A stretch of 57,547 nt of DNA, filler included, from Circinaria calcarea (Eukaryota): NCBI GenBank assembly GCA_051942165.1. It is 4 parts of 4 records of this genome, joined end to end, with 100 filler letters (N's around TTAATTAATTAA, not from the genome) between each part and the next. Parts side by side here need not be neighbours in the genome. Positions count along the whole stretch, not along the records: positions 28,861 to 43,176 come from JAVECS010000444.1; 3 more parts are not named here. One strand, 5' to 3'. Below, piece by piece: positions 3,001 to 45,529 of the stretch. The notes below the pieces were generated by a model that ran no database searches, was not told the origin of the DNA, and saw only the letters and a list, made by a program, of their open reading frames with translations. Numbering within the stretch: position 1 is the stretch's first letter; each line of letters begins with the position of its first letter. A program made the position numbers and the translations under genes.

Positions 3001-3192
3001 AGGTGGAGGTATAGGGAGCGGGAGTGCGACAGGTTTATTGATGAACCGCAATTCTTCTGTGACTGCGGCCGACTCAGAGCTCGGGCCTGGACTTGGGCTT
3101 GGGTTTGGGTTTGGGTTTGGGCCCGGGGATTGCCGAGGACGCTTATTGCCGGGCATCGAGGGGACGGTGGAGGAAGGGGAGGGGGAAATCAT
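1..3192 (-). CDS. Zn(II)2Cys6 transcription factor, UaY/PPR1-like (purine/pyrimidine utilisation regulator); 3' end runs off the window
   Basis: ACNRCRLRKNRCDQNLPACASCEKAHVKC binuclear cluster; YLGSTSGISFARVVFAAV and Fungal_trans-type RRRLWWCVYSFDRLVSTCVGRP motifs; introns near 815-860 and 702-760 extend the CDS leftwards. Confidence 0.9.
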
Positions 3193-3840
3193 CGAGGACG
3201 GCTACGGTTCGGCGGCAGCGCATATTGGGAAAAAGGTCGTAGCTCTGGAAAGTTGGAGTGAAAAATTGGGATCGGGGGCCCTGCCATCTGAGAGCTCGCA
3301 AGAGAAACGCCAAAGGCACCACACAATAATGTACCGAGTAGTGGCAGGAAGTAGTGTCATTGGCCCAGAAGCCATCGTGCGAGCCTTATCTTATCGCCTT
3401 ACCTCATCTCAATGGCTTCCCACGTGCCGTCCATGTCTCAAGGAATGCTCGACTCGACAACGACAGCATCATCTTCGACTGCTCTTGCCGACCAGATAGG
3501 ACCGAGACTAGAAATCATATTCGTAAAAGGCCTTCTCGATACAGAGCCAATCAAATCATCCCCGCCAAGCAACTCGACCGAATTACAATTGGTATAGTCA
3601 ATGCAAAACTCCACCCGCTCCCGGTCCCATCCAAGTACGCCCGGCAGCTGCAGGCTATCCAAGCTTGCCAGTGTATACCACATGTATTCCTCCGGGCCCA
3701 ACTCCCTTTTCTGCCATGCAGGATCTATGCGCCTGTCTCGTTTCCGCCACGGTCACTTGGAGAAAGCCCATGTCGCTGCAGATATTCGTCAACGTCGTCA
3801 AAACTCGCCCGGTGGTCTCATTTTTTACATGCAAAGGCAT

Positions 3841-15415: not shown

Positions 15416-17251
15416 TCATCCAGTCATTGGTCTTTGGTCCTTTCCAGTCATCCTTCCCCAAACGCCTTCGAATAAACCCTTCGTGGCTCCAATGACCCCT
15501 TCCCCCTGTTCCACCACCCTCGCCACCCCACCCTCCACAACCCGCTCAGCCGTCTCATTCGCCTTCTCCTCGTCCGACTTGTCCCCGCCGTAACGTACCC
15601 CATCACTCCCTTCGGCTTCAAACTCGAAATTGCTACTGTAAATCACCGCCGCAAAAGCTTCCAGTTCTCTGACCCCCTCCATTGCTTGGACGTACTCATT
15701 TGGTACTCCATTACCTATCGAGTGCGCTTGCCGAGTCATGACGGCTAAGATGTTTGCAAGTTTAGTTTTAGCTTGCGTTAGGTCGGCGCTTGCATGGTCT
15801 GCATCTAAAGATGGCAATGCAGGATCAAGTATTTCTTGAACTCGAAGTGCGGGATCTATGGACACGGAATCAGAGACGGGAGGAGAGAGCTTAAAGGCTT
15901 GAGAACGAAGTTTTTGATCTGTTAGGTGGGAGAATGCCGTGTCGAGGAGGAGGGTAAGGATATGTGTGAACGTTGGAGAATCGATGAGATCAGAGGTTTC
16001 ATCCAGGAGGCGGCGCAGAGCGGGTGGGGTTGAGGTAGTAGGGGGTGAGGGTGGTGTAGCCTCTGAAGTAGGGGAAGGGGAACTGGATGTAGAAGGTGGA
16101 GTAGCAGACATTCCGGATTCGTGGAGAACGAACTCCTCTTGATCCTGAGGAGGCAGGAGATATGGGAGCCATTTTTGGGTTCTGGAAACGTTAATTAAGG
16201 TACAGAATTTGGGCTTAGTGGATATCTCACTTTCGGTCCTCTGGGGTAGCTCCTTCAACCTTCTTCCTCACGTCGACGACTAAGGACGATAGCCGTTCAA
16301 GCGAAATATCTTCCCGAGGATTCAGAGGACCGAACACTTCTTTGACTGCTGTTTCGACCTTCTCCATAATAGCCTTCCATCCTCGATGTAGAAGCCACCA
16401 ACTGAATGTTAGGAACTTTCGATTCGTCTCAAAATCATTACCATATGATTGTTCATCTCGATCATCGTCGTGGTTCTCTAGACTTATTGTAGGATCGTTC
16501 GGCGCTTGTGTTGCTAGCGATACAACACTGGAAAGGTAGCTTCGCCGGCCTAGGAGGTTGAGCTGTAGGCGGGTAAGGAGGGTAAGTAGAGAAAGCGTAT
16601 AGATTAGGGTAAAACATCTTGTTATCGCTTGGGATAGTTAGTAGGGAACCTTCGCTTAAAAGACGTCCGGACCGCGCTCACAACTTATTTTTAACTCGTT
16701 CCATAACTGTGGCTTGGTTTTCTTTGGTCTTTGTAAGCCAGCCTCGCTGTTGCTTGAACTAGATGCAGCTATCTGACTCATATGTATAAAGCTCTCGGCT
16801 TGGACGCTCGAGAGACTCCTTCCGTCTTCGTCTGTGACACTCGGAGTTCCGGAAGAAAGGTCTGAAGGCGCAGTGTCCAAAGCGCCCGCGCTTCGACCCA
16901 ATCTCTCCGCTTTCTGCTGTTGCAGCTCGTGCGTAATCTTTTCTACAGGTAATGCTTCGAGTACGTTTTCCGCGGCTGTAGGCAGTAGAGCAAGTACTGT
17001 AAAAGTACAATCTTCCTGATTTTGCTGAAATCGACGTCGCAGGCTGGATGTCATTAGCTGAAGAAGTCAAGGGACGTTGGAAGAAAAGCGTACTTCTCGC
17101 GAGCAATGCGATCGATACTCATGCGCTCTCTTGCTTCAGATATCTTATTGATAATATACTGGCCGGCAATATATCCCACCCCCAGCACTCCAAACCCAAT
17201 CGCAAAGTTCGTGCGGTGCCGCCGCAGCCATCTTCGAGTGGTACTTATCAT
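15416..17251 (-). CDS. PEX3: Peroxin 3
   Basis: MISTTRRWLRRHRTNFAIGFG, LRRRFQQNQEDCTFTVLALLPT, FSWWLLHRGW, LRRLLDETSDLIDSP, ELEAFAAVIYSSNF; multi-exon. Confidence 0.93.
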
Positions 17252-20385: not shown

Positions 20386-23129
20386 ATGGCCCCAAAGTCT
20401 CCTAGGTCACGCTCGACCACGTCCGCCTCAGTTACAAGTACCCACCGCCCCAAATCACGACAATCGACTACTAGCATCCAATCTGCCAGTATCCAGCCAG
20501 CGCATCCCTACCAGCACGCCGCCGAACCAATCTTCCAAGTGCAGTCGCAACCGAATTCCTCAGCTTTCCATGGCACCCCAGAGGAAATGATTACTCGTTC
20601 GTCACATCAACTGACCAACCCGAACAATGTCTATGCTATTGATCCGTCCTTACAAAACAACGCACTATATGCCGCACAGTATAGCGTAGAAAACAGCTTC
20701 GGGCATGCAGGAGGGATAGCAAGATCTGCCATCGCCACGAACCATACTTTTGAAGAGAGGGAAAGTCAGGGACCCGAAACGAGGCTCGAGGAACAAGGAA
20801 TTGATGAAAGTGTCGGAGACGGTAGCAGGAGGAAGAAAGGCTCCGCGTCAAGTCAAGCAAACGACATCGAATTAAGGAGACTGTTTAGAGAGAATCAAGG
20901 CCGTGATTTGAATGAACTAGCGGCGCAAGTTTTAGAAAAGAAGTCCGAGAAAACCAAGCAGATCTTTGGGATGCTATGGTAGAACCAGCCAATATACCAC
21001 AGACTTTCTACAAGCTTACATTTCATAGGTTGTCTGCAAACTGCAAACGCTCAAACCACTCTGTACCCCGGAACCGAGTATTTGCTCATTATGCCACTCG
21101 ATGTGGTAACGAAAGGGTCCCTCCACTCAACCCAGCCTCGTTTGGGAAACTAGTTCGCATCATATTTCCAGGCATTGCGACTCGCCGACTGGGTGTACGA
21201 GGAGAATCCAAGTATCACTACGTGGAATTGAGTCTTACTATAGAAGACCAGCAGGAGCCTTTCAATATCCCAAGGTCTCAAAGTGTAGCAGCAGATGAGC
21301 ATGGCGGACAGCATGGACTAGAGAGACCCAGTAGCCGAAAGTAAGCCTATATATCACTCCCAACACGCGAACGCATCCCCTTTAAGCGAATCTACCTTCC
21401 ACAGTGTTGAAGGAGAGCAACGATGAGTTTGTTGTGCATTTACTAACTCATAACTCTCCACAGCCAACGACAACTCATCCCAGCCGACTCTGCTCTGTTT
21501 CCCTCTCCAGAGAGTCCGCCAGATATCCATTCATCCATTCCCACTTCACGACCAGGTATGGCGGCTTCACTGGGGCAAGTCTTCATGAAACCCAACTGCA
21601 ATGACAGCTTCCCAACTCGCGCACGAACGGTTACTCGAATGCTCAAGTTCCCTAGCTCGACGAATCCAACGGCCCGAGACGATGGACCTTTACAATTACC
21701 CAGCATAGAACCTTACCTCCCAGCCGGCGCGGATCCAGATGCCGTGCGCTCACTTACATCTGTCTACCGTACTCACTGTACATGTACTATCGACAATTTT
21801 CGTTTTTGTAAGAGCAATGAGTTCTTCGAGGGCTACAAATCCCTCTGCGGCTTGTTAACTGTACCCGGCCTCAAGCTACTGATGCATCCTAATATAGCTC
21901 CATGGATCACAGCATGCGAATGGCTCAAGTATCAGAAAATGATGCCAGTGCTTGATGGCACGGTGCTTTCCCAGGTACCCACAAAAGTCATGAATCACAT
22001 GGATATGATCCGTGTGCATCTTTGCGACAAAATATCCGAATGTTCTCAAAATCAGCCAGCTCATGTCCGAGATGCAATGCTCGGCCCTGCCACCATATTC
22101 ACCAACCTTCTCCAGCGAATGCTTCGGGTACATAGATCAGCAACCGATGTGGCTGGCACACTCAACGATGATGCCATTCGTGAGCAATTATGGACTGATT
22201 GGGTCTACCATGTCGATCCGTACTGGATAGTCTCGGAATCACTGATTGGTCAAGATCGTGGCCACAATCGGGTCCTACACATTCTGACGCAAGATGTGCG
22301 TGAGATCCTCGGTCCCTTAGACGTGAATACCACAATTGGAGCTGGCACTATATTCGACCATAATCCATTTGCCAGTAACGGCATGTCACATACCGAAGTG
22401 GATGTCACCCACAGCTTTGTGGATCGGCTGGCGCAATTCCTGGGTAATCTTCCCTTCCGCTTTCCTGGCGTCGACGCCCGAGAGTTGGTCGCATACGTCC
22501 ATACGATCGGCAACTGTGTCTCCAAAAATTTAAGTCTGAACGGGGCAGCCAGTCTAGCAAGCTGGTGGAGGATCTGGATTTTCCTTGGCGAGATGGGCAG
22601 TTGGCTTGCCGAGAAAGGCGGTTTTCTCGAATTTGGCCCTGAGACCATGAATGTTTCAAACATCCGTCCACCTAATGTGTACGGCAGAGGGAGTGGAGGA
22701 TACGGCTTCGAGAGTGCTAGCGACGGCTTTGGATCTTCTCGACCGAGGACTGCGGCGTACATTAGTGTGGATCAGCAAACCCGGTTTGGCAGCGAAGATA
22801 CTGGGAATACATACTCAAACCATGGTCACGATGTGGGCCGCGACACGGAGACCAGACACAACACCTCTCACATCGACCTCAACGCGCACCGCTTTCACCA
22901 CCATCAAACCCGTGATGCCGACAATGCTACACAAGCCCTGAAGTCAGAAAACCAACTTCAACACCCTCGACGTGCCAGCGCCATCAACCAAACAGGGCCT
23001 GATACTGGTTTGGACCACGACGACAGCGGTATTGGCATGAGTCTCGATGACGACTTTGGGATGGGAAAATTCAACGGCTTCGTTGATCCCGTTCATGGTT
23101 CTGATCCGGCTGACGTGGTCGTCTGCTAG
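20386..23129 (+). CDS. RFX-family winged-helix transcription factor (CPCR1/RFX1-like)
   Basis: VPRNRVFAHYA...PLNPASFGKLVRIIFPGIATRRLGVRGESKYHY RFX DNA-binding domain; introns near 20979-21028 and 21341-21463. Confidence 0.9.
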
Positions 23130-26733: not shown

Positions 26734-28072
26734 ATGGAGTCATCCGATCTGACTGTCAATGGGGCCTTGGCCAATGAAGATCTTTTCAATGGACACGCTG
26801 GAGAAACCATTGCAAACATTGCTCAGGCACAGGCAATCAGCGCAGGTGGGTCCTTAAGTGTACGCGTCGCTATCAGACTATAGCTGATGGATTCTATTCA
26901 GACGAGATAGCCCTTTACGATCGCCAAATACGACTCTGGGGCGTCAAAGCGCAGGAGAAGTAAGTGAGCATTACCTTGGCTGGCAGCAGATGGGTGGAGA
27001 AAATTAACTGTTCTCAGGTTACGAACAGCCAATATCCTACTCATCGGTATCAAAGCGCTCGGAAATGAAATTGCGAAGAACCTAGTTCTCGCTGGCATCG
27101 GTTCTCTGACCATCAGTGACGATCAGCCTGTACATGAAGATGATCTGGGTGCTCAATTCTTTATATCAGAACGTCACATTGGCATGAACGTAAGATCATT
27201 CTCATACCAACGGCTGGATCATTCCACTGACAGGACACCCTCAGCGTGCAGAAGCAGCGCTACCCCAAATCCAGAGGCTCAACCCCCGAGTTGGTCTGCA
27301 AGTTGATACCGACCCTATTCTCTTCAAAGATCCTGCCTACTTTGCTCCCTTCTCTCTCGTTATCGCTACCGACCTTCCCCTCTCGACGATATCTACTGTT
27401 AATGCTTCTTGCCGCCTTGCTAATCGTCCATTTTACGCCGCGGGTACGCATGGCTTTTACGGCTTCATATTCGCTGATCTGATCCTTCACGACTTTGTCA
27501 TTGAGCGCGAAAAATCAAACATTCCCACGGTTCTGAAGCCAGAGACAGCTACTCGCTCGATCATCGCCTCTTCTACGAAAAGGGGCGATAATGGCAAGCT
27601 CGTTGAGATAGTCACCAAGCGAGAAATATACTCTCCCATAATCCTAGCCAACAGTTCTTCGGTACCTGCCTCGCTTCTCTCCTCCCGCCGGCGTAGAATG
27701 CAAATCACACCACTCCTGACCTGCTTCAAAGCGCTCTGGGAGTTCCAGTCAATTTCCAACACCTTACCGTCGCATTCGCATGCAGATTTGGAACTGTTTA
27801 CGACATTGGCTACGGAAAAGCATCGAGACTTGCAACTCCCGCCCGAAACCCTGCGCTCGGAATTCCTCCGAAGCTTCTTACAGAATCTAGGAAGTGAGTT
27901 GGCGCCCGTGACGGCATTCCTTGGGGGCCAGTTGGCGCAGGATGTGATCAATGTGTTGGGCCAGAGGGAGCAGCCAATCCAGAACCTGTTGCTGTTCGAC
28001 GGTGAAGAATGCAAGGGGCCGGTCTACGCCTTGCATCCGATATTCCCACCTCTGGCGGGTGAAATGGTGTAA
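26734..28072 (+). CDS. AOS1: SUMO-activating enzyme subunit 1 (ThiF family, Aos1/Rad31)
   Basis: EIALYDRQIRLWGVKAQEK, ALGNEIAKNLVLAGIGSLT, GFYGFIFADL, ELAPVTAFLGGQLAQDVINVL; three introns. Confidence 0.93.
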
Positions 28073-28927: not shown

Positions 28928-30843
28928 TTACCACGTAAACCCTTCCTCCCAAAAATCCACCTTTCCCTCCTCCACCACCTCTCTCGCCGCCTGCCGGACA
29001 TCATCCGCCAACGCCCCGGGCCCACAAACACCCACACACATGGCGCCGATCCGGTTTCGAAACTCCTTCTCCACAATAACCCCAACCTTGACCCGACCGG
29101 CATGCATCTGGACCGTCCCGCTCGGACTGTGGATTTCCCGGGGAGACTTTGGTTTCGTGATGAAGAGTTCGACTTGTAACACGTCCCGTCGTCCGGGCAT
29201 AGATAGGAGGGTATCCATCCACGGGCGCACCCATTCCAGCTGTTCGGTCGTGCGGACGGTCCATACAAGGAGGATTCGGCGGGTGGCGGTGGTGCTGTTT
29301 GCGTAGCCGGAGATAAGGTCGCGGACGTGGCCGAGTTGATGGGTTATACCGACACCGCCGGCGAAGAGGAGAACGGTACCGTAAGAGTGAAGGGACTCGA
29401 GACCGCCGTACGGTCCTTCGAGGAATCCCTTCAGATGTAAGATGCCCGTCGGGGAGGCGCTCGCACGGTTGTAGAGCTTAGCTGTCATACCCGTACGTTT
29501 CGAGATGACGAGTGATACAGACGTGGTCGTGCGGTCTTTGGAGGGAGAGTCGAGATCTAAGCTTGAGCTTGGTAGCTTTTCTAGGCGCTCTAAATTGAGG
29601 TAGGGTGTAGATCTTGATTCGGACCAGGCGACGGAGAAAGGATGGGATTGCCAGAGTGATATACTCGGCAAATAGACATAGACATGGCACCCAGGTTTAT
29701 ATCTCCATGGCCGCCGAAGGTCGAAAGTCACTCGGCAAGCTTCCCCTGGCAAAGCCTCGACGGTCACGGTGGTAATCCCCCGACGTAGGGAGACATTGCG
29801 ATAGACGATATGAAACCAGCGGGCCAAGCGGTCGTAGGACCATAAGACGATTATAGTGATGACATATGGCATCTGAGGGAGAGGGCCGAGTTTGGCATGA
29901 TAATAGACACCAAGGAGAGCAGCAAAAGCAAGGAATTGATGGATGTGAAGGAACGTTTCGTAGAATGCATGGCGAATTGGTGACGGTGACTGAAGTAGTA
30001 TGATTGTCATAGCGATGGTACCGACGAGTCCAGATTGTAAAAAGGGATCTGATCGAAATGCTTCAGAGATCCCAAGGGATCCGGTGGCATTGCGCTTGTT
30101 AACAGCCCAAGCAATAGTATGCGCAATTGACTGTAGGATAACGATCCGACCAATCCATCTGTGGAAGAGATTGAATGTGTCAAAAGAGACATGTAGGAGT
30201 CCGATCAAAGGATTATTCCTGCCCGCCAGAACAAATAAACCGACCATGTTGACCACAGCTAGATGCCCTGTCCGTCCACGGATCTCTGCAACGAGAGCTG
30301 CCCGGTTCATCACACGATAATTCAACAAACAGCAGTAGACGATGTTGCTTATCAGGTAGAGACCCAACAGGAGCGTATGTAGTCTCGAGGGTATTGTCCC
30401 AACATTGATAGCTTTTGACAACTGCATCTCCCTATTGTGACGTTTCTTGTTCAGAGGTGCGTACAGCAGTTTTTTCTTGATACTCGGCCAGAAGGATGTT
30501 TGGTCCTTTGTCCAGTATGTTTGCCGATCCGCTGAAGAGGTACTTAGGGACATGATATGTCGTAAATGTGCATTGCCGCGCTGTGCCGTTCGAACAGATA
30601 TTATGAGGAGAAACAGAAAGGCTATCGTAACCCATAATGAGTGGCTGTAATTATAGTCAGCAGAAATTCCGATTTTGACCAGACGTAACATGCCCAAACC
30701 TACCTTGAAATTTGATCCACGGTTATGTTAACCCCTGCTAGTCCCGTCGTAAAAGGCAATATGTGTTCCACTGGCGACGAGGGATGAGGGTCGTCGGATA
30801 CTATTGTACCGCTCTGTAGCGGAGTAGTAGAGCTGGACACCAT
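28928..30843 (-). CDS. Ferric reductase-like transmembrane oxidoreductase (FRE family)
   Basis: GRNNPLI, FHRWIGR and FLHIHQ heme His motifs, QSHPFS (FAD), EGPYG and FAGGVGIT (NADPH), VCGP, EEGFTW*; short first exon spliced via GTAGGT..TACAG. Confidence 0.92.
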
Positions 30844-32944: not shown

Positions 32945-33592
32945 CTAACATATACCCTGGCCTTTCTGCCCTCTTTTCTGTTCTTCGCGTTTCTCCTGCT
33001 CCTTCTTCTCCTTCGCTCGTTTCGCCTGCGCTTCCTGACGCTTTCGTTCTTGCTGTTGTTTCTCTTCTTTGCCCAGGTTTGTACGTCAGCTATAAGCATT
33101 TCTCTGTTGATTCTCGCACAGCCTCGTGATTCCATAAAGACAGATTAGGCCATACCGGCTGTTTGGTGTTGGAGCCCAAGAGTATTGACCCCAAAGTTCG
33201 GCGAATCATTCTCTTCGTGAGCTGTGCTCGTTCCGAGAATAACATAGTGGTTTCCCGCATTCACCACGTAGAAGGTCTCGGGAAATGACTTGGCTTCGCC
33301 CTCTTTGTGCCAACGGAGATCTACCTTGCCGATTAGGGTGTAGGACTGGAGCTTGGAGTCCTGGACTGTCGCCTCTTGACATGGCCTGTACGGAACTCGC
33401 AAGCGCTCTAACGTCACTTTGGAGATTATGCAAATCGACAAGGTCTTATCTATCCTTGCGCGTATGGACTCCTCCGTTTCTTCAAAATTGGAGAAAACTG
33501 TGATATCGACGAAGGGTTTCGACTCCTACCAAAACTATTAGCTCGATATCTGACCATTGTTTTGTTGAACATATTGCACTAGGCATTACCAT
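32945..33592 (-). CDS. Small retropepsin-like protein with a degenerate catalytic motif and charged coiled-coil tail
   Basis: Spliced model M|ESKPFVDITVFSNFEETEESIRARIDKTLSICIISKVTLERL...IGKVDLRWH...ETFYVV...YVILG...|EEKQQQERKRQEAQAKRAKEKK...*. Confidence 0.6.
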
Positions 33593-34588
33593 AAATGTCA
33601 AAGCAGGGTTATCGATAGGTTTATCCCGCCGAAGCCAAAATATCCGCAACAAGCGCGGGAAGATATCCAGAGTGAAGTCTGAGGCTTTTAAATTGGTATC
33701 CACTTCGTCTATTCATGGAAAAGAGCAGGCCACAGGTCTCTTTATGAGGTGGAAACACTGCAGCCTCGTCGGCAGGTGTTATCAGCCTCATTGACGAGCC
33801 GCAGCAGATGTGTTGGCGGAGCTCAATTGGTAGGCAATAAACTCCCATTGAAAAACTTAAAGCAGTAATTGAAAAGCTACAGCAGCCCCTCATAACGATA
33901 ATATTGACATGGATCGAAAGTTGAGGCGGGGTATCGCAAGAGAGCGGCATGGATAAGATTATCGTGAAGGAGTTAGTCACGTGCAGTCACGTGAGTGCTT
34001 ATGTAATCTGCACTAGTCTATTTAGTGTATAGACATCTCGCGTAATGGTAAGCAACTTCAGCTTGGAATACTACAATCGCACAGTCATCAAATCCCCCAT
34101 CAATATTCTCGACTGCAATTTCCGAAGTCACTTTGTTCTAATTGCGAGAGAAGCACAGCGCCTTATATGGTTAACCCTAACACACCAGTTATGCCAAAAA
34201 GAAACTCATAAATCATTACATTATCCACACCAAAGCATGGTGAGGCGTTGTGCCAACACTAGGGTCTCCTCCTTCTGCGTGAACTCAAGAACGTACGGAA
34301 ACGATAATTGTGGCACTGTGTACATTTATATGCACCCAGGACAACCGGCACACCATATATCCAGAGCGACAACTTGATCCTCCCCACTTAGCGTTAATCC
34401 AAATTGTGTAGGGTAAGGTAGAAGGCCCCTGTCCTTTGTTATCAAACACTTGGTGGATTGATATTCTCCAAAGGACTCTCCTCTACCTGTTTACCTTCTC
34501 GGGAGGTGAGCAATCTAGTCTATAAAGACACTTTAACTCAGAAGGGTTGAAAAAGTTTGCGCATCTTTTAAGACACCTGATTAGATAT

Positions 34589-35574
34589 TCAGTCTGCCCG
34601 TTTCAAGAACCAGACACTGTCGTCATTTATATAAAATCCAATTTCTTTGATGGTGTTTTCACTGAGCAGAATGTCAAACGCCTTGCTCGAGCTGGTATCC
34701 AGTACAGCGAATGTTGTCGTATATGTTTTTTGACGCTGGGCTATATGCCAATCTAACTTGATACTCCCGAGGGGCTTGATGTTAGGACCGATTGGCGTAA
34801 GTTCGGGACCCTCGTATGGTTCCATTTTGATACCAAGAGTATCCATCACCTGCTGACTGATAATATCAACTCTTAAACCAGTATCAAGCTTGCCAATCCT
34901 CGTCCCAAACTGTCCATCGGGGAGATGTATAAGCATTTTGAATGTGCTTTTGAATTCTGTTGGCTGAGCCAGACGAGCAGCATCTCTGGGAGCTCCAAAT
35001 TCGTCCGCTAGCATTGGTTGAGACTCCTGGATTCCAATAGCATCGACCTCGAGTTGGACAGCATATGCTTTCGCCTGGCTGTCAGTCCGCTCAGGAGAAA
35101 GCGGTTGTGGAATCGACTGATTGGGAGGAATCTCCTTCAGTTTCTCCAAGCGTGCCGTTAAAACTTCCGGGTGAACTTTTTGTCGCTTCTCCAGAGGCTT
35201 TTCGGAACCAGGGGAGCTGAAAGCTCCTCTTGACTGGTTTTTTGTCTCATTCTCCTTCTGGTCTGTTAGTTTTCATAATTGTCGCTGATTACAGATGTCC
35301 AGAACATTACCTTACAACACTTCGCTTTGCGAAGCTTGTCTCCCCATCTTTTTAGAATTGATCTCGGCTGTTTCGTTATTGAAGCTTCGCACTTTCGGTT
35401 TCCTCTAGCATTTTCATCCTCCGAGTCCGTTGGTCCAATGTAAGGGGATCCTGCCACCAAAGTCTCATCGTTCGATGTTGGCGAATTACCATCTTGGAGG
35501 CCACTGACCAATTGAACAGGTTGACTCGGATGTACCTGAGGGCTAGTGGGACCTGAGGAAGGGGATGTCTGCAT
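34589..35574 (-). CDS. Retropepsin-like (clan AA, single-lobe) aspartic protease domain protein with a disordered N-terminus; start uncertain
   Basis: RIGKLDTGLRVDIISQQVMDTLG...PLGSIKLDWH...TTFAVL...FDILLS; upstream Ser/Pro-rich exon joined in frame across an intron at ~35259-35310. Confidence 0.65.
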
Positions 35575-36713
35575 TCGTGTTCCTGAGGTCTGCTCGTTAG
35601 CTCCGTAGCACGAACGCAGAGTCGAGGATACGCCACTTACCTCGACATACAAGGGTCATAACAGGCATAGAGTTCGGTGTCAAAGGATCCCGTACAGTCG
35701 GCGTACAGACCCGCGAAATTGAAGGGCGATGTATCTAGTGGATAGGATTGGTAGCTGGATAACCAACAAAAATCAGACCAAAACAGGGGATATTTACTCT
35801 GCTCGGGGCGCAGGGGATAGTGATCGTTTACCTTGCTGCTAATAATGGAACTAGTTATGGATAGCACTTCTCATGTGCGATGGAAGTAGAGCATCCGCCA
35901 CACGAGCCAAATATGTTGTTTATGTGATAAACCATAGCCCTAGGGCGATTAGTCCGACCTGGTAGAATGCAAGTAACCCGCCAGTAACGGGCCGCTTCTC
36001 GAGTTGGAAGAGATGTTCTTCCACCTTTCTTGCGTGAACGCTATCTGGTAGACTCTCTTTCATTCAATGCGGCATGTTATTTCCAGTCGCGGTCTCGCTT
36101 AATTTGCATCTCGCGATTTAAAAAACCAGGCTAACTTCGGAGCTGCATTTGGGGGTTTTAGATTTTTGGTTAGAGCTTTACTGTGCGGCACAGATAGGCT
36201 AAGCCTGATACTGTAAAGCACGGAGGCCAGGCTGGCAGAAACTGATTGGCCAGAAGAGGTCCGACCAACAATGGAGCTATGTAAGGCTAGGCCGGGTGGC
36301 CCGTTGCGAACGAGGTATCGATTGGTTGGGAATAATATTATTACCGGCCTACCTAACATCCTCCGAGTATAACAGAGGAAAACTGAACCCCCCAATTGTT
36401 AGGAACAGCATTTGTTCAGCCCTAAAACTTTGGAGTTGATAAGTGCGCTACCTCGCACATATCATACGTGCGAGCTTGCATAGCTGGATATGATCCTGAG
36501 CCGCAAGGCTGACATCGGTTTGGCAAGGCGGTGACAAGGCGGCAGCTGTAATGCCTTGATTACTCGCCTTACTATCCTGGAGCTATGGTGGATCAACTTC
36601 ATAGGCCAATTCCCTGACCATAATACCTTCTGGGAGAACAGATTCGGTTCGAAGAAGACCGTCTGCAAACACCTGCGAACGGTTGACTTTACGCTATCCT
36701 TCAAGCCCAACCC

Positions 36714-37739
36714 ATGGGTGACTATACCAGACTTGCCACGTTAATCGGAAGCCATGAAGAACTAGCTTTATTTCGACGGTTTGCATTCTTAAACGCGAAG
36801 AATCTGCTTTACATGCAGTCAGAACTGGTCCACCTCGAAGGCGAGTTAGCAAATATTGCACTCGAGGATGATCGTTCTGGAGACGATGATAAAGCGTTGT
36901 TCCAAGGGTCCCTATTTGACTTGAAGGAATCTGCCGGGACCGAGAAAGGTTTACAATGGACAAAGGTGTTGGAAATTCGTGAGAAATTGAAGGAGTACAG
37001 TAGGTGCAGCTCCTGCGCATTCCGGAAAGAGGGCTAATGCGGCCATAACTTCTTCACAAGACAATGCTCTTCTGCAGTACTCCCAAATCCGGAAGTTCGA
37101 AAAGCCATTGAACAAAGACCTGAAGCTACTACAGGAATGGCTGGACCGTCCCGAGGGTGGCGATTTCTTCTTGCGGGGACGGGAAGCAGAGATTTGGGAG
37201 AATGAAAAGGACCTGATTGCGCTATCCGATCGACAAGCCAAGAAAGATAGCATCACAAGGTTTATAAGCGATACGGTGATTCCTTGGTATCATCATCGCT
37301 GGGGGCATCGGTTCAAGGTATTGCCTATCTCCAGCGAACACGCACGGGAGCTGAGACTTTGCCACGAAAGAATACTGCCACCTCTGGCGAAGACTGGAAC
37401 GGCTTGTGGCATTACGAAGAAGCGAGCTTCGTCGCTGTTGCCAATGCCATTAGTACCATTCTTTCCTCCCTCTTGCCCACTACTTCGATTCTGGTGCTGT
37501 ACTTTGTCAAAAGTTCCACGGCAAGAGTGGCGGTTACAATGCTCTTTACGACTCTCTTCTCATTGACATTGGCCACGGTTGCGAGGGCTAAAAAAACTGA
37601 GGCATTCGCCGCAACAACAGCGTAAGCCCCATGCAACGATTGACAAGAGTCTACGGACCCGCTGATCCAAATTCACCGATCTAGGTTCGCGGCGGTACAA
37701 GTCGCTTTTATAGGAGGAACAGGGATTTGCTCTACTTAG
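36714..37739 (+). CDS. DUF6594-like membrane protein (4 exons)
   Basis: YTRLATLIG..LFRRFAFLNAKNLLYMQSELVHLE, IREKLKEY|NNALL, DLIALS, C-terminal hydrophobic helices ending FAATTA|AFAAVQVAFIG. Confidence 0.85.
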
Positions 37740-39136: not shown

Positions 39137-41209
39137 TTAGTTCTCATCGTCGGAGCTGGACGTATAATAATACCTCCTCCTCCTCGTTCTACGCGTCAGT
39201 CTCCCTTTCTTTGCTGGTGCCACTACGATGAATTCTCCATCCGAGTCTTCGTCTTCCTCTTCCTCTTCCGCCCGAGCTCGCTTCCTCGACACCGGCGCTG
39301 CCTCCTTCCGATTCTGATTGACGACTCTCCGAGACTTGTCCCGTTCCACAGCATAGGTTTCCAGATTCCCCAAGTGTTCGGAGATCATGGATCCTTTGAG
39401 TCCTCGTGCTGTGCGCGTTCTCCGGTCCCTTGCACATTCCGTCTGCATCTTGGCCACAGAAAGCGAGTGCGTAAGGGTACCCTCGTGCGGCCGTTTGCGC
39501 ATCTGGTGGCTCGGATAACCAGGTGGAGGGCCAGTCCGCTCACAGTGGGTGATGAACTTCTTTGCGACGCTGCGTTCGAGGTCGGAGCTCATGAGCATTC
39601 GGTTCTTGCCTTCTGGTTCGTCGGGAAGATCCCGATCTTCAACACGGACGTCGAGTTGCGCACAGATGTCAGGGAAATCAAGAAGCTTCTCGAGGCAATA
39701 TAAATGGACGTAGCCGGCGTTGTGCTGTGGATCAGTGTCAGCTTCCTTGTAGGTCTGTTCGTCAAAGGCAACCCGATACTGCCCTTGATTGATGCAATTT
39801 TTGATCGCAAAGCAATCCTCGAAACGACAGCGGGCCGAAGTTTTCGTGGGATATCTGCGGGCAGAGTCAGCCGGGTTCTTCTGAATCCACAAGATGAGAC
39901 CGCGGTGATGAGGGCTGAAGAGGTACTGTTCGATTTCCTCAACGCTATAGAACCTACCAGCTTGCAGTTCACCGTAGGGCGTATATGTGAATGCGCCCCA
40001 GCTTGCTGGTGTTCGAACAAGAGCGTTATAGTAATCTTCTGGCTTGTAGTTAACAATCATCGCAGTCCGGCGGTTGAGACCCTTGACAGCATGTTCTCTG
40101 ACCCACGGCTTTGCTGCATCTCTTTTACCGGCATCTCTTGAGATCGAAGTCGCCGTAGAAGGCCTAGCCTCTGTGGATTTGGTCAGCCGAGTTGTTCTGG
40201 TAGACATCAAGGCTTTGATCGGCTTGGGTTCTCTCATTCGGTCTGAGCCTTCTGTTTCGCTTTCTGAGGTCGAAAGAGCCTTCGTCTCTGGATCGAAGCT
40301 ATCGGCGCGGCTTCGAACCGCTCTAGTCGAAGATGGGGAAGGACGACCCGTTGAGCCATATAACAAGAAGTTGGGATTCGCGGTTGTAATATTGGGTAGG
40401 TGTCGAGAAGGCAGATTCATCTGAAGGGCAGTGGAACGATTTACCATAACCCGCTTCGGCTCCAACTGCAGCATAAAATTAAAATCGTCCTCAGGAAGCC
40501 AAGGGATGTCAGTAGAATACGGAATGACCGGGTCAGCCAATAGACTAGGTGGTTCAGGGTAGACTAGATTCGGTGTATCCTCTAACATAACCTCTCTCAG
40601 GATGTCTGAGAGTGTTGGTGATAGGGGCTTTGGCTCGATCGGAGAAAAGTCGATCGGAGGAAAGTAGACCGGGTTCCTCATGATCTCCGAAAACGTTGGG
40701 GAAGCGTTTCTCTGCTCTGCCATTGGGAGACACATGGAATCCCTCATGATCTCTGAAAGCGTCGGGGATGCGCTTCTCTGCTCTGCTATTAGGAGAAATA
40801 GCGGATCCCTCATGATTTCGGAAAATGTTGGCGATTGGGGATTATTCTCCAGAGTTGGAAGGTCTATAGGATCAGACTCCAGCGTCGAGACATGTTCAAG
40901 GTCTGGCTCGACTGTTTGAGGATTTAAGAGCTCCGGGCTGTCGTAATCATCTCCAAAGAACTCACGCATGAGATCCGGAGTAGGAGAGAGTCCACCAGCA
41001 CCTGCCTGCAGCGGGGACCCCAAAGGAGGGGAGTTCTCAATAGGGGATTCCAGCTCCGTGTCGTAATCATCTCCAAAGAACTCACGCATGAGATCCGAAG
41101 TAGGAGAAAGTCCACCAGCACCTGCCTGCAGCGGGGACCCCAAAAGAGGGGAGCTCTCATTAGTGGAGTCCAGCTCCGTGCTATCGTGCGCGTCATTCCG
41201 GTCAGCCAT
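39137..41209 (-). CDS. Uncharacterised protein: repeat-rich acidic N-terminus plus Cys/His-containing C-terminal domain
   Basis: 690-aa intronless ORF; LWIQKNPADSARRYP..CRFEDC..GQYRVAFDE..DPQHNAGYVHLYCLEK; basic/acidic tail. Confidence 0.75.
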   Translation of the reverse strand: MADRNDAHDSTELDSTNESSPLLGSPLQAGAGGLSPTSDLMREFFGDDYDTELESPIENSPPLGSPLQAGAGGLSPTPDLMREFFGDDYDSPELLNPQTVEPDLEHVSTLESDPIDLPTLENNPQSPTFSEIMRDPLFLLIAEQRSASPTLSEIMRDSMCLPMAEQRNASPTFSEIMRNPVYFPPIDFSPIEPKPLSPTLSDILREVMLEDTPNLVYPEPPSLLADPVIPYSTDIPWLPEDDFNFMLQLEPKRVMVNRSTALQMNLPSRHLPNITTANPNFLLYGSTGRPSPSSTRAVRSRADSFDPETKALSTSESETEGSDRMREPKPIKALMSTRTTRLTKSTEARPSTATSISRDAGKRDAAKPWVREHAVKGLNRRTAMIVNYKPEDYYNALVRTPASWGAFTYTPYGELQAGRFYSVEEIEQYLFSPHHRGLILWIQKNPADSARRYPTKTSARCRFEDCFAIKNCINQGQYRVAFDEQTYKEADTDPQHNAGYVHLYCLEKLLDFPDICAQLDVRVEDRDLPDEPEGKNRMLMSSDLERSVAKKFITHCERTGPPPGYPSHQMRKRPHEGTLTHSLSVAKMQTECARDRRTRTARGLKGSMISEHLGNLETYAVERDKSRRVVNQNRKEAAPVSRKRARAEEEEEDEDSDGEFIVVAPAKKGRLTRRTRRRRYYYTSSSDDEN
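40941..41180. repeat. Tandem duplication, 2 x 120 nt, in frame within the 39137-41209 gene
   Basis: 40941-41060 and 41061-41180 both begin tcgtaatcatctccaaagaactcacgcatgagatcc and end cagctccgtg. Confidence 0.95.
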
Positions 41210-42496
41210 GCTTGATGAATGTAGTAAGTATAGAGGGTTCCTGAGAAGTTATGAGTACTGGTTGAGAAAGTTATAAAACAAGTATATACACTGAAAATTC
41301 GAGGACTTGACTCTGATGGCTTAGCCATGCACTACATTGTATATATTATATTCTTAATGGAACTGGACCGTGTCCTCGTCCTTTGTTATAGATAAAGGAA
41401 TTTCACCTACAAAGAGCATTGTTTTGATTTATGGTATAGTTGAGCCTTGTTCTTTATCGACCATATCTCCATTGACCTCATTCTGGTCAATGTTGAGCCA
41501 TTGTTGGATAACATCAAGTACTCCTAAGCGATCAGTTATCATCTCGTCAATGCTGCTAATACTTGGTATGTGTACCACAAGAGATAGTATTTGTTTAACG
41601 CGGTTTTGGTTACAATATTCGCCAAAAGTCCAAACCATGATTTTTGATCTATAAAAAAAACCAGAATACGGTCTGGAAAATTTTCATTGTAAATTGAAAT
41701 AAATATTAAGTAGCCGATAAGCATGTTGGTTCAAAGGGGCACGCGCAAACGGGCTGAAAACAACAGACTACGGCGACCGGCTAAATTCCAGCAACAAATA
41801 CAGCCCGGTGTACGGTCTGTACGTAGTAGGAAAGGACGACTCCTATACGGAAGAGAAGATCTGGCACGTGCTGAGCGCGGAATTCGCACAGGCAAATTCG
41901 GAAAACAAAGCCGGAATAATGGTCCATTTACCAAGTTCCGGCCACGGGTACGGACAAAGAATTTAAGGAAACAAATTTGAACCTAAGTGTCGCCTGATGG
42001 ATCCGCCAAGAAATCACCTAGGGGGATCTTCTTCCAAACCACTCCCTAAAAGCCATTCTGGAGCTCATCACAGCCACTCACACGAGCGCGATTTCTAGTA
42101 AATAGGTTGACTGCTAGTTTCCGTTGACGATGATGAAGTATTGAGCTAAATAAGGAGGGAGACCACTAAGGAGGTCTCACTTAAATAAATGTGAAGTGTA
42201 GTATTCCAAGCTGAAGTTGCTTACTACTACGCGAAATCTCTGTATACTAGACGGACTAAGTACATATTGTATAAGCATTCACGTGCCAACACGTGACCAA
42301 CTCCTACAGAAAGGTGTTTTCTACTGGTCAACCACGTAGCAGTTTCAAGAGTTTGTTCGAGCAAAAAGCCTTTTGACCATGGTACCACGCTGCATTTTTT
42401 GCAACGCCTACACAATAAGACGCCTTTGGTGCAAGGGTTTAGCGAAGGTCCACCGCTGATCGTCAAATCTTTCTTATCCCACATCTCCCATCATTC

Positions 42497-43176
42497 TTAA
42501 TGCTCCTCCAGCAGCCTTCTCAAACCCTCCTCATTTCCTCCCCTTTCCAGCACTGTCCTTTCCTGTGCGTCCTTGAGCCCCTTATCCGCCCCCCTCTCTA
42601 ACAACTGCTTCACAACGTTCCAATCTTGCCCTCTGTCGGCTAATGTAATGGGCTACCGAGCTCTTCTCTACGCGCCCATGTGCCCTCATCCTCCACCGGC
42701 ATTTCATTCACGTCCGCACCCATCTCTATTAGCCATTCCGTTATCTCCACAGTACTATTCCTAGCCGCCGCATGCAGCGCCAGCGAATTCTTCAATACGG
42801 CCCCATGCTTCATCAGTAGCTCCACCACGTCCTGTTGTCTTGACCCAGCGGCTTGGGCGATGACAGGCTGATAGCCTGTAAATGGCATGCAAGGGTCCGC
42901 GCCGGTTGACATGAGACACTCGACGCTTGAGGGTCGTTTGGAGCGGACCGCGTGTCCGAGGAGGTTTCCGGAGTGCCCGAGTTTATAGTTCGGATCGAGG
43001 CCGTGGTCGAGCAAGACGCGGAGGCTATCAGGAGAAGGCTGAGCGACTGCAATGCGGGCGAGACGATCGGTGGAATCGGAATAGTTGGCCAAAGCGGTGC
43101 TCGTTTGGGGGTCTGTAAGCAGGCGGGTAAGGATGAGTGGATGCTCAATCGCTGCCACGGCCAGATCAGGCAGAAT
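42497..43176 (-). pseudogene. Ankyrin-repeat protein, 5'-truncated by spacer, with a frameshift near 42642
   Basis: LLDHGLDPN, LMSTGADP, ALHAAARN..LIEMGADVN, GSPLH* then continues in a shifted frame ADRGQDWNVVKQLLERGADKGLKD. Confidence 0.75.
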
Positions 43177-43276
43177 NNNNNNNNNNNNNNNNNNNNNNNN
43201 NNNNNNNNNNNNNNNNNNNNTTAATTAATTAANNNNNNNNNNNNNNNNNNNNNNNNNNNNNNNNNNNNNNNNNNNN
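43177..43276. other. Artificial contig spacer
   Basis: 44 N + TTAATTAATTAA + 44 N. Confidence 0.97.
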
Positions 43277-45529
43277 CCTCCACCACTATCTCCTCCACCC
43301 CACCCTCCAGACCCCGACCCACAACCTCCTGCAGCTCCTCCCGCACAGGCACCTAAGCCAGTTCCCGCACAAGCACCTGCAGCTACACCTCCGCCGCAGG
43401 TTCCCTGGCAGCAATTGCCAGCAGCTCCGGAGTTGAAATTTGCGCATGCGGGGTTCGTGACGTACATACCACCGTTGATGCACGGATCCCCCATGTAAGG
43501 CGCGTAGTAGGGCATGTATAACGGGTACCCATACGCATAAGGATGCATGTAGCTATCCCGGTCTGGTGTATCACGGCCCTTCTTCGTTGCGCGCTGGCGA
43601 GCTTTCTGGTAGTTGCGCTCTAACTCCGCGGCTTTCACTTTGGTTGAAACGGAATAAATCGATGTCGGACGAATGGCGTTGTGAGCGGAAATGTGAGGGC
43701 TTTTCTGGGGTCCATCGAAAGACGAGTCGTGCAGCTTGTCGAGTTCCGCCAAGACAGGATCATGTTTGGATTTAAAGAGGCGAGAAATCGTTGAAGTATG
43801 TGACTCCCGGATTGCTTCACAGTACCAGCAAGTACAGGAACTGAGCTTGATTTAGCTTGTGCGGTTAATGCTTGATACCTAGAGAAGTTACCTGTACACT
43901 TGATCAAACATTTTCTGATATGTCTTTGAAGTCCATTCGAAAGCATCCGATAGCTTGTTTTCGTCGATTTTGTCATCATGGTCGACAAAGACCCAGGTTT
44001 TGGAAACTGAGTAAGCGTAGTAGGATGGAGGACTTAATTGATGGGTGTGCCATGCCAGATCGATATCTAACGTCGGCACGGCTACCTTGTTAGGGTAGCG
44101 GGCAATAATAGCGAAATACCTCTCATACTTCTCCACCAAACGAGCCATCGTGCTCGAAGCGGCAGGGGAGTGGAGCCAATCGATTAAGTGCATCTTCTCG
44201 ATAAAGGAACCTTGACGAATAACAGCGCCGACCAGATCGATCGAGCATGCTGAGCTGTTCTCCCAGTAACACGACATCATTCGCCTAATTGCAACTTTAT
44301 CATCCCTCGTCAATGGCGGTCCCTGCAATAGTGCGGACTCGATCAAAGTTCGGATTGCACTGATAGACACAGAGCTGTGCAGCTTCATGTCCGTAACTTC
44401 AATGATAGATCGAACGAGGGAGAACTCGGTTATCAGAACATTAGGGTACGCGGTTATCCTAAGAAATCTCTTCCCCTCCGGCAGCTCCGGCAAACCTATA
44501 ATATTATTCAATATGTGGCTTATCACCGCTTGCGGTAGAGATGTAGTCTTACCATAGATATTAAGCAGCGTTCCAGGCATAGGAACGTTATTCTTTAGCA
44601 GAGCTATTGTATCATGCCTAAACTTCTGAGATCTCAGCATCTCATGGTTGAGAACCAAACCACATGATGAGCAAGGGTGCCGAAAGTCTTTGTCCGCATA
44701 ACCAGAACCCAATTCGCCCGGGTTCTCAGTCCTCCAATATTTTTCAGACGTGCACGATGTCCACTTGACATTTGCTTCTTTCGAACATCTCGGGCATTTC
44801 GGTTGGATAGCTAGCGACTCGTTTGAGTTTTCCCATGAAAGTCCAGTGCTGGTTTCAAAGAGGCGGTGGGCCTCATTGCTACATGTATATGCAAAAGACT
44901 TATTGTTGATTGCGGCATCGACCGCCACCCATGATAAGCCCGTTTGCCAGAAAGCCATTGTACCGTGTCGGATACAGTCTTCCAAGAACTTTTGTGGGTT
45001 AAGCATATACGAATGCCAAACCATCAACACATCTATCACGATCAGCCTTTCTCGGATTTCGCTACATGAACGACTTACCAAGCGGAGGCAAATTTTCCTT
45101 GGTGAACAGAATGGGCTTGGCGTCCTTTGTAATGCTGGCGGCATAACCTCCTCGAAAATCCGTCTGAGTTCGCATCCCCGTGCCTGGAATGCAACACTTC
45201 CACCATTTTTCAAAGCGTAAGCAGGCATTGGTAACGAAGATGGCCCAACGTTTTTCACGAATCTTCGCTAGGACGTTCATACGCCGTTCTTTCGTTGTGC
45301 CCAAAGGCACGAATTCATCTCGGATCCCGTAGAGACCGTCGGTGGTGGCGACGTCCTCGCGTAGCTGGTGGAAAGCCTCCAGAAGCTTTAGGTGTACCAG
45401 GCATTGACTGGGTGTCGGTTTGGTCGACGTTTCGGAGACGTTTAGATTAGAGAACGCAGCAGTTACATCAGGCCGCCCCACATCATCATACGAGGGAGGA
45501 GGGTCTGGAAGCGGTTTTTCACGAGACAT
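43277..45529 (-). CDS. Glycine-rich domain-containing protein (GRDP/DUF1399); 3' end cut by spacer
   Basis: CLVHLKLLEAFHQLR, LPPL|DVLMVWHSYMLNP, DLVGAVIRQGSFIEKM, VPTLDIDLAWHTHQL, Gly/Cys-rich tail CGGGVAAGAC. Confidence 0.9.

Follow-up and report, generated by a model that had tools for sequence, protein, structure and literature searches.

Retropepsins are active only as dimers, with each protomer giving one Asp to the active site. Cellular proteases of this fold are few, and Ddi1/DDI2 and ASPRV1 each have a specific regulatory job: animal DDI2, which is retropepsin-like, frees the membrane-bound transcription factor NRF1, and ASPRV1 (SASPase) is a retropepsin-like protease of skin that stands outside retroelements. 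The retroviral-protease-like (RVP) domain of Ddi1/DDI2 is classed as MEROPS A28. DUF6594 is, to our knowledge, a large fungal family without a known role.

A protease gene beside the gene of a membrane protein has a precedent in the fungal gasdermins. Clave et al. (2022, PMC8851545) report that 80% of 1,884 gasdermin genes in fungi have a protease gene within 10 kb, with S8 (63%) and CHAT (19%) proteases as neighbors, and that HET-Q2 cleaves HET-Q1. The original prediction made for the locus described here had invoked this precedent, and correctly so. The locus consists of three adjacent genes, A, B, and C, in the lichen fungus Circinaria calcarea, and was analyzed within a stretch of 57.5 kb in all, hereafter called the window.

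Locus layout and the fold of gene B

In the window, B is followed in tandem by A, both on the minus strand, and B and C lie head to head with 1045 bp from the B ATG (35668) to the C ATG. These coordinates bear out the original placement of all three genes, which had put the divergent spacing at about 1.1 kb. The features are as follows.

32945..33676, minus: gene A, degenerate A-type retropepsin-like paralogue (hhalign, family HMM, orthologue at locus L002 of a second species)
32945-33066, minus: gene A, predicted last exon, with charged Lys/Glu-rich tail and stop
33148-33525 or 33156-33525, minus: gene A, predicted main exon
33590 to at least 33676, minus: gene A, upstream conserved coding stretch
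33442..33450, minus: gene A, D-K-T codons at the catalytic D-T-G position (sequence and alignments)
34589..35668, minus: gene B, candidate retropepsin-like aspartic protease, 322 aa (NCBI model)
35641-35668, 35311-35582, and 34589-35257 (including stop), minus: gene B, predicted exons
34592..34954, minus: gene B, retropepsin-fold domain of about 120 residues (AF2, Foldseek, VIA-align)
34877..34885, minus: gene B, D-T-G codons with putative catalytic Asp 225 (sequence)
35669..36713, no strand: divergent B-C intergenic region, 1045 bp, presumed shared promoter (coordinates)
36714..37739, plus: gene C, predicted DUF6594 membrane protein, 282 aa (Pfam PF20237, gene model)
36714-36999, 37061-37317, 37371-37621, and 37685-37739, plus: gene C, predicted exons

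Gene B is identical (100%) to NCBI model Q9187_002953 (P0001, 322 aa). It matches no Pfam family and no PDB sequence, and neither A nor B matches a clan AA profile of Pfam at E<=1; the N-terminal 200 or so residues of B likewise match no Pfam family and do not align between orthologues. Since a direct profile match is lacking, the B family is tied to clan AA via intermediate relatives and the fold. An AF2 model of the B domain, built on a 143-sequence alignment, reached pLDDT 91.8 and pTM 0.82. Foldseek returned 61 PDB matches for it at E<=1e-3; every match listed is a Ddi1 or a retroviral protease, and yeast Ddi1 (4z2z_B, E 2.6e-5) is the best. A search independent of Foldseek, VIA-align, found 14 chains at Z>=8, including the proteases of EIAV (Z 11.8, rmsd 2.4, 101 aligned), RSV (11.6), FIV (10.7), and HIV (9.5) and Toxoplasma Ddi1 (10.9), and a language-model look-up suggests the same clan for B (score 0.93). 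Members of clan AA have a single-lobe beta-barrel of roughly 100-130 residues and the catalytic motif hydrophobic-D-[T/S]-G-[A/S], which the L-D-T-G of B fits up to the last position. On this model, gene B is a predicted single-lobe aspartic protease of retropepsin fold with an intact D-T-G, in line with the retropepsin-like protease originally proposed.

The B family contains 322 clusters at E<=1e-3, and all nine organisms named in the records examined are lichen fungi (9/9), covering two subclasses of Lecanoromycetes. The active-site columns hold Asp in 141/142, Thr in 130/142, and Gly in 95/142 or Ala in 28/142 members, the last group carrying D-T-A instead of D-T-G. The residue after D-T-G is Leu in B, alone among 142 members, versus Ser or Ala in 137 of 142 relatives. 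At the second signature (hydrophobic-hydrophobic-Gly), the last column is Gly in 99/142 and Ser in 35/142; B has Ser there, and gene A reads I-L-G. Asp_protease_2 or gag-asp_proteas is matched at E<=0.01 by 36 of 146 family representatives, and 4 of the 146 pass the curated cut-off of PF13650 or PF13975. The family appears to be undescribed so far and mostly escapes Pfam; the literature searched contained nothing on "retropepsin-like" together with "Pezizomycotina" and nothing relevant on retropepsin and lichen. Catalysis by any of its members is putative. One member, P0138, has a caspase-type domain joined to the retropepsin-like domain.

A degenerate paralogue coupled to B

The two minus-strand genes are not significantly similar by BLASTP (E 1.5). 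hhalign of A with the 143-sequence alignment of the B family gave a 94% probability (E 1.5e-7, 81 columns), and its register is exactly that of the shared motif layout listed originally. A family HMM run over 1939 six-frame ORFs detected gene A at E 1.1e-7 and matched nothing beyond genes A and B, in the window and at four related loci. Gene A has D-K-T where a catalytic site would read D-[T/S]-G, and the A-type motifs of all four genomes (D-K-T, D-R-A, D-K-G, and D-R-V; 4/4) keep the Asp and replace Thr by Lys or Arg. The L002 orthologue shares 54-55% aa identity with A and conserves all three of its pieces, and the splice donor GTATGG and the in-frame acceptor are common to the window and L002. 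Read in this way, gene A is an old divergent paralogue of B with a predicted charged C-terminal tail, best called a retropepsin-fold pseudoenzyme candidate. The profile alignments, the family HMM, and the D-[K/R]-x motifs make its earlier label of pseudoprotease a reasonable one.

A and B recur together elsewhere. Both are found in L001-L004, which represent one species, and in two more genera the proteins P0147 (Letrouitia) and P0140 (Xanthomendoza) each combine both types, the B-type domain first and the A-type domain second, and match A by BLASTP at E 1e-29 / 9e-21 and 8e-21 / 6e-18, respectively; both are automatic models, which may have merged tandem genes rather than captured fusions. 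In all, four genomes of lichen fungi show genetic coupling of an A-type with a B-type unit, and the protease-pseudoprotease pair is well supported.

Gene C and the conservation of the trio

Gene C, originally described as DUF6594-like with C-terminal hydrophobic helices, proved to be just that. All three exon translations searched (36714-37010, 37063-37320, and 37371-37625) match Pfam DUF6594 (PF20237), at E 3.2e-19, 3.3e-11, and 1.5e-16 and with 70.2, 44.0, and 61.4 bits against a gathering cut-off of 30, over profile positions 1-232 of 238. In the four-exon model the predicted introns are all GT-AG, with lengths of 61, 53, and 63 nt, and the coding sequence gives 282 residues without an internal stop; the orthologue alignment backs intron 1 and the last exon. 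An N-terminal part of about 195 residues is hydrophilic (mean hydropathy -0.68) and precedes hydrophobic stretches at residues 199-227 and 233-252. The gene corresponds to NCBI model Q9187_002954, which carries a precomputed PF20237 label, as do 12/12 retrieved relatives, all of them single-domain proteins, and Atlas clusters score 0.94-0.95 for DUF6594. Neither "DUF6594" nor "PF20237" is mentioned in the literature searched. The family is widespread in Ascomycota, with close relatives of C in the non-lichen genera Trichoglossum and Paraphaeosphaeria; since DUF6594 proteins occur beyond lichen fungi and the named members of the B family are, as far as seen, from lichen fungi only, the class as a whole does not depend on a B-type protease.

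The whole trio is found again in a second, deeply diverged species, at L002. The gene order there is A(-) C(-) B(+), compared with A(-) B(-) C(+) in the window, the B-C pair being inverted as a unit and still divergent, with the two genes some 1.1 kb apart (the ATG of C is at 8340 and the first in-frame ATG of B at 9443). The flanking genes differ, and among L002 ORFs of at least 50 aa, those of the trio genes are the only ones to match the 57.5-kb window. Synonymous divergence between the two species has reached saturation, and pN/pS values of 0.39 for A, 0.45 for B, and 0.13-0.31 for C point to purifying selection. In a third species, a B-family member (P0027) and a C orthologue (P0155) each lie on one ENA contig of 36,915 nt; by this equal size, which is circumstantial, they are probably on the same contig. 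Recurrent linkage in other genomes had been set beforehand as a test of the prediction, and it was found in the second species between different flanks and is probable in the third. The record of C consists of one ancestral arrangement in two species and one case judged from equal contig sizes. The linkage of the A/B pair to the DUF6594 gene is moderately supported.

It is quite possible that A and B form a functional pair and that the DUF6594 gene is a passive neighbor left by surviving ancestral gene order. Chance survival of small gene blocks is not rare in these fungi, the linkage of C is documented in two species plus the circumstantial case, and the distribution of DUF6594 is far wider than that of the protease family. 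Fusions to DUF6594 are absent among the 146 B-family members (0/146), the two-domain A-B models P0140 and P0147 have no DUF6594 match, and the B-C intergenic DNA shows no significant conservation between the two species and no conserved motif. However, the trio stayed intact while both of its flanks changed and synonymous sites became saturated, and the rearrangement carried B and C along together, still head to head. Moreover, the 57.5-kb window contains a single DUF6594 gene, as does each 20-kb locus, a density too low to account for the adjacency by itself. That the three genes were retained together hints at a shared job, without proving one.

Mechanistic readings and known systems

We lean, tentatively, toward a conserved cellular trio that is special to lichen-forming fungi, in which B acts as a homodimer, A modulates it, and C is a candidate partner. 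Because retropepsins work only as dimers, B would most likely act as a homodimer, and A would most likely pair with it to tune or gate B activity, as a protomer that is non-catalytic or inhibitory. B and C may be co-regulated from their common intergenic region. C would then be the best available candidate for a substrate or membrane partner of B, with a possible B cut separating the soluble part from the membrane anchor. As a working system the trio is a proposal, yet to be demonstrated.

A three-part switch peculiar to lichen-forming fungi would go further and is, in our judgment, unlikely. A and B would form an inactive heterodimer, with the Lys/Arg of A occupying the place of the dimer-locking Thr, and a signal would let B form homodimers that cleave the co-expressed C, making this DUF6594 protein an active membrane effector or freeing its soluble part. 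If true, such a switch would give the DUF6594 family its first function and add an aspartic-protease branch to the protease-controlled membrane effectors of fungi.

We rate slightly lower the module for cell death or allorecognition put forward originally, in which C would be the executioner and B its activator, as HET-Q1 and HET-Q2 are. It draws on the C-terminal hydrophobic helices of C, on the caspase-type domain in P0138, on the conservation of the trio, and on the rule that fungal gasdermin genes have protease genes beside them (PMC8851545). However, C has no match to any pore-former in Pfam or to any solved structure by profile search, and no sequence similarity to gasdermin or HeLo, and receptor-type (NLR) architectures are found in 0/12 DUF6594 relatives and 0/146 protease relatives. 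Two haplotypes of the second species, 1.4-2.3% apart overall, show 3, 1, and 0 base differences in the three coding regions; from this tiny sample the coding regions look near-invariant, contrary to what a hypervariable recognition locus would show. The terms "aspartic", "aspartyl", "retropepsin", and "Ddi1" are also absent from PMC12881547, which reviewed regulated cell death in fungi in 2025. This portion of the original prediction is left without direct support.

Equally improbable, in our estimate, is that B frees the soluble, helix-rich N-terminal part of C from its anchor for signaling or regulation, much as DDI2 does with NRF1 in animals. The layout of C, a hydrophilic N-terminal part followed by hydrophobic helices, would suit such a release, as would the divergent transcription of B and C and the presence of Ddi1-type domains among the nearest solved folds to B. 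Against it, Pfam finds only DUF6594 in C, with nothing DNA-binding and no further known domain, the parts of Ddi1 that are ubiquitin-like or bind ubiquitin are missing from B, and the sequence itself reveals no cleavage site.

A last reading makes A and B the decaying relics of retrotransposon protease genes, without present function; it is very improbable and is contradicted already by these data. In its favor, the closest Pfam families belong to retroelement proteases, and clusters rich in such families come up in the language-model look-up. But Pfam found no RT, integrase, or gag in the 20 long window ORFs searched, in another 36 ORFs of at least 75 aa at 30.7-39.7 kb, or in any of 146 relatives (0/146). 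No long direct or inverted repeats surround the trio and no LTR-type direct repeats occur in 29-42 kb, intact orthologues are under purifying selection despite saturated synonymous sites, and the motifs are strongly conserved over 143 members. The A/B locus consists of host genes and is not a retroelement, and the original statement that gag, RT, and integrase are missing holds at the Pfam level.

The proteases of retroviruses and LTR retrotransposons (RVP, RVP_2, gag-asp_proteas, and Asp_protease_2) have the same fold as B and a common D-T-G-[S/A] signature, whereas B lies outside any polyprotein and has predicted introns, a long domain-less N-terminal extension, and orthologues elsewhere. 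Ddi1/DDI2 is like B in being cellular and unconnected to retroelements, and it too has a single-lobe fold with a D-[ST]-G site. In contrast to it, B shows neither a ubiquitin-like nor a UBA domain and matches none of the Ddi1-type Pfam families, identity is 11-20%, and the B family is, as far as seen, restricted to lichen fungi, multi-copy, and paired with a degenerate paralogue.

Gasdermin/HET-Q2 clusters resemble the trio in that a protease gene adjoins the gene of a membrane-active or membrane-bound protein and the arrangement is kept as a unit. Their proteases are S8 subtilisins or CHAT caspase-like enzymes, whereas the trio pairs an aspartic B with a DUF6594 protein. Unlike the membrane proteins of those clusters, C has no detectable relation to gasdermin, and the trio is known from sequence alone. 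The locus offers a first experimental handle on DUF6594.

Stand-alone retropepsin folds like that of B also occur in Rickettsia APRc (5c9b, Z 9.7) and Pseudomonas RloA2 (9g59, Z 8.0). The bacterial and skin retropepsin-like proteases belong to lineages unrelated to B, without detectable sequence similarity, and we know of no conserved degenerate partner for any of them. An active-looking B beside its D-[K/R]-x paralogue makes a concrete, testable case of an enzyme and a candidate pseudoenzyme in an obligate-dimer fold.

Layout and gene models of the trio

In the lichen-forming fungus Circinaria calcarea (Lecanoromycetes, Pertusariales), the sequence read-out places three genes where the original prediction had put them:

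32945 to at least 33676, minus strand: gene A, with D-K-T at 33442-33450, matching the place of the D-T-G of gene B
34589-35668, minus strand: gene B, 322 aa, with D-T-G codons at 34877-34885
36714-37739, plus strand: gene C, DUF6594 protein, with PF20237 on each of its three main exons

Gene A lies about 0.9 kb downstream of gene B on the same strand, and the ATGs of genes B and C stand head to head with 1045 bp between them. Gene B agrees at 100% identity with the NCBI model Q9187_002953 from a C. calcarea metagenome-assembled genome when 34592-35272 (minus strand) is translated. Its N-terminal part of about 200 residues matched no Pfam family and gave no alignment between orthologues, and its C-terminal domain of 121 residues is conserved and contains the D-T-G.

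The three main exons of gene C match PF20237 separately (E 3.2e-19, 3.3e-11, and 1.5e-16) and between them span positions 1-232 of the 238-position profile. Joining four exons across GT-AG introns of 61, 53, and 63 nt yields a modelled protein of 282 residues, with a predicted hydrophilic N-terminal part and hydrophobic stretches at residues 199-227 and 233-252; intron 1 and the last exon are supported by orthologues. The NCBI model of this gene (Q9187_002954, stored as P0152, 267 aa) seems to be mis-spliced, reading through intron 1 where orthologues have a conserved helix. It also ends at a TAA overlapping the last-intron donor and so is without the last exon present in the longer relatives P0160 and P0162.

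Gene B, its family, and the paralogous gene A

By itself, gene B has no Pfam match and no PDB sequence match. Searched against 1.84 billion representatives, a profile built from five close homologues of B gathered 322 clusters at E<=1e-3, 204 at <=1e-10, and 84 at <=1e-30, all sharing the C-terminal domain. Among 146 representatives of this family, 36 match Pfam Asp_protease_2 and/or gag-asp_proteas at E<=0.01, and four pass the curated cut-offs; a PDB sequence search with the family profile gave nothing significant. In the 143-sequence alignment, the motif columns hold Asp in 141/142 members, Thr in 130/142, and Gly (95) or Ala (28) at the third position, followed by Ser (73 of 142) or Ala (64), and a later Trp is invariant. 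Gene B itself carries two residues atypical for the family, a Leu after D-T-G (1/142) and a Ser for the second-signature Gly (35/142).

The AlphaFold2 model of the B domain reached a pLDDT of 91.8 and a pTM of 0.82 with the 143-sequence alignment, which was used instead of the five-homologue alignment (pLDDT 33.1). With this model, Foldseek returned 61 PDB matches at E<=1e-3, those listed being all Ddi1 or retroviral proteases, and the best was yeast Ddi1 (4z2z_B, E 2.6e-5). A structure search independent of Foldseek put EIAV protease on top (Z 11.8, rmsd 2.4, 101 aligned), followed by RSV protease (Z 11.6), Toxoplasma Ddi1 (10.9), FIV (10.7), and M-PMV (10.6). From the family profile matches, the motif columns, the predicted model, and both structure searches, we conclude that gene B encodes a predicted retropepsin-fold protein carrying the catalytic signature; the protease-like layout first proposed for it is thus real, with the fold recognized once relatives are included.

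Source records were looked up for 30 family representatives. The named ones belong to Toensbergia, Squamulea, Loekoesia, Xanthomendoza (two), Letrouitia, Calogaya, Physcia, and Polycauliona, and the remainder are Logan, ENA, or JGI records. Four of these genera, plus Circinaria, were checked as Lecanoromycetes, and we take the other four to belong there as well. A scan of prokaryote genomes gave six stretches, none confirmed, as expected for a fungal family.

Several family members have unusual architectures. P0138 (Loekoesia sp., 644 aa) combines an N-terminal Peptidase_C14 domain (E 2.3e-5, residues 63-175) with a C-terminal retropepsin-like family domain (495-644) and may be either a genuine fusion of two proteases or two gene models merged into one. 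P0022 / P0167 (ENA, 762 aa) has two family domains per chain, with L-D-T-C and L-D-T-T replacing L-D-T-G and a second domain that clears the Pfam cut-offs, and is possibly a "dimer" linked covalently or a tandem pair merged into one model. Two further ENA members, P0018 and P0074, share an identical contig record (4 contigs, the longest 67,635 nt), so that two family genes probably lie on one contig. Weak C2H2 zinc-finger matches, below cut-off, occur in the N-terminal parts of several members.

Direct comparison of gene A with gene B gave no significant match (BLASTP E 1.5). Aligned by hhalign with the family alignment, however, its exon matches over 81 columns (94% probability, E 1.5e-7), in the motif register originally proposed for the two genes, and in a set of 1939 six-frame ORFs the family HMM picks out gene A at E 1.1e-7. 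On these two profile matches, gene A is a predicted divergent paralogue of B that has kept the Asp and lost the Thr-Gly. No homologue of A was found in the 69-221 aa length band, and A-type relatives sit inside longer models. P0147 (Letrouitia subvulpina, 611 aa) and P0140 (Xanthomendoza sp., 809 aa) each have a B-type domain, with L-D-T-A and L-D-T-G, respectively, and then a second, weaker family domain. By BLASTP over 105-124 residues, these second domains match the A exons at E 9e-21 and 1e-29 (P0147) and at E 6e-18 and 8e-21 (P0140), which identifies them by homology as A-type. The motif reads D-K-T, D-R-A, D-K-G, or D-R-V, an Asp followed by a basic residue in all four genomes. P0147 runs on into a Lys/Glu-rich tail resembling the one that we infer for gene A from a splice donor and acceptor common to the second-species locus L002.

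The two long models may be either genuine fusions or tandem genes merged during annotation. In both cases, the order B then A on the same strand is found again in Teloschistales; Circinaria is in a different subclass, and coupling of the two genes is seen in four genomes. Thus, the A-B coupling is old, and no other part of the "module" is as well supported. A complex prediction for A and B run without alignments scored 0.01 against a mark of 0.34, which weighs neither for nor against their pairing.

Conservation of the trio and its genomic setting

A metagenome scan with a single peptide pattern, [FRK]xKTYTTTF, which is carried by 19/143 aligned members and makes for a narrow survey, gave 162 candidate stretches, of which four were confirmed. 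With DNA identities of 98.6-99.99% among them, these four loci represent one species. In the locus L002, the orthologues of the whole trio were placed by homology to the window genes:

4773-5521, minus strand: A orthologue
7429-8340, minus strand: C orthologue
9332/9443 to 10414, plus strand: B orthologue

With A set to minus, the order is A(-) B(-) C(+) in the window versus A(-) C(-) B(+) in L002, so that the divergent B-C pair is inverted as a unit with its spacer of about 1.1 kb kept. The only L002 ORFs of at least 50 aa that match anywhere in the 57.5-kb window are those of the three trio genes. L002 is flanked by genes for CTP synthase, an alpha/beta hydrolase, and a mitochondrial carrier, versus ferric reductase, a 703-residue repeat ORF, and ankyrin and GRDP-like genes in the window. 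The recurrent linkage on which the original prediction depended is thus found in a second species, rearranged and with different flanks. The search for a conserved promoter motif in the B-C spacers of the two species found only an 11-mer (E 0.21).

Synonymous sites are saturated between the two species (pS 0.73-0.77), and with pN/pS values of 0.39 for A, 0.45 for B, and 0.13-0.31 for C, this indicates purifying selection on all three genes over a deep divergence. Upstream of the main exon of A, 33590-33676 (minus strand) encodes a 28-residue peptide about 60% identical to its L002 counterpart despite this saturation. No in-frame ATG for the peptide was found in either species, and a stop lies a few codons upstream; the ATG that the two species have in common abuts the splice donor.

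The window and each of the four loci contain a single DUF6594 gene, so density of such genes does not explain the adjacency to B. A third case is circumstantial: P0027, a B-family member 45% identical to the B domain, and P0155, a C orthologue sharing 51% identity with P0152, are each on exactly one ENA contig, both of 36,915 nt, and probably on the same one. Comparing 12 DUF6594 relatives with the looked-up B-family proteins gave no further equal-size contig pairs beyond the window species' own (14,316 nt). DUF6594 is broad in Ascomycota, and close relatives of C occur in the non-lichen fungi Trichoglossum and Paraphaeosphaeria. Gene C is co-inherited with A and B in two genomes, probably three, and we regard the link of the protease pair to the DUF6594 membrane protein as moderately supported.

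Other features of the window are as follows:

772-3201, 13118-14113, 15419-16267, 21447-23126, 27194-28069, 28931-30727, 42643-43224, and 43891-45267: ordinary fungal genes, by Pfam
39140-41248, minus strand: 703-residue open frame without a Pfam match, with tandem repeats of 66 nt (3 copies) and 120 nt (2 copies)
40676-40873 and 40939-41178: tandem copies of the repeats inside this frame

The ordinary genes encode a transcription factor of the Zn2Cys6 type, a sugar transporter, peroxin-3, a factor of the RFX type, a product with a weak ThiF-family match below cut-off, ferric reductase, an ankyrin-repeat protein, and a GRDP-like protein; 39140-41248 is probably a repeat protein gene. Reverse transcriptase (RT), integrase, and gag had no match in 20 long window ORFs, in 36 further ORFs around the locus, or in the 146 relatives, and no long direct or inverted repeats flank the trio. 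A retroelement remnant is rejected on these absences together with purifying selection on the orthologues, in agreement with the initial reading of the locus, which now extends to the relatives.

Possible working of the trio

In retropepsins, each chain supplies one Asp to the active site, which exists only in the dimeric state, and the chains are held to each other by the Thr of D-T-G. Gene B would accordingly be expected to act as a dimer. Gene A, with Asp and predicted fold kept and Lys or Arg at the Thr position, is a candidate non-catalytic or inhibitory partner of B. Gene C, with its transcription diverging from that of B and its shared inheritance, would be the best candidate for a substrate or membrane partner. 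The result might be that its soluble part is released, that a membrane effector is activated, or another outcome altogether.

The original prediction went further and read the trio as a possible cell-death or allorecognition module with C as a membrane effector under protease control, a reading that we consider improbable. The family member P0138, joining a caspase-type to a retropepsin-like domain, would fit it. However, C matches no pore-former or solved structure by profile (the PDB search with the DUF6594 profile was not significant), receptor-type architecture is seen in 0/12 DUF6594 relatives and 0/146 protease relatives, and no receptor-type (NLR) or HET domains were found in the 20 long window ORFs scanned. 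Moreover, although two second-species haplotypes are 1.4-2.3% apart overall, their A, B, and C coding stretches differ by only 3, 1, and 0 bases. The observation behind the prediction stands, and its interpretation does so in part: the protease/pseudoprotease pair is upheld, the DUF6594 link moderately so, and the role in cell death or allorecognition is not supported.

The precedent invoked, a fungal gasdermin encoded beside its activating protease, is accurate (PMC8851545), but it concerns serine and caspase-like proteases. Judged from sequence and predicted structure, the putative protease of the trio is instead a variant among the cellular retropepsin-like enzymes that is new and restricted in lineage, accompanied by a conserved pseudoenzyme-candidate partner.
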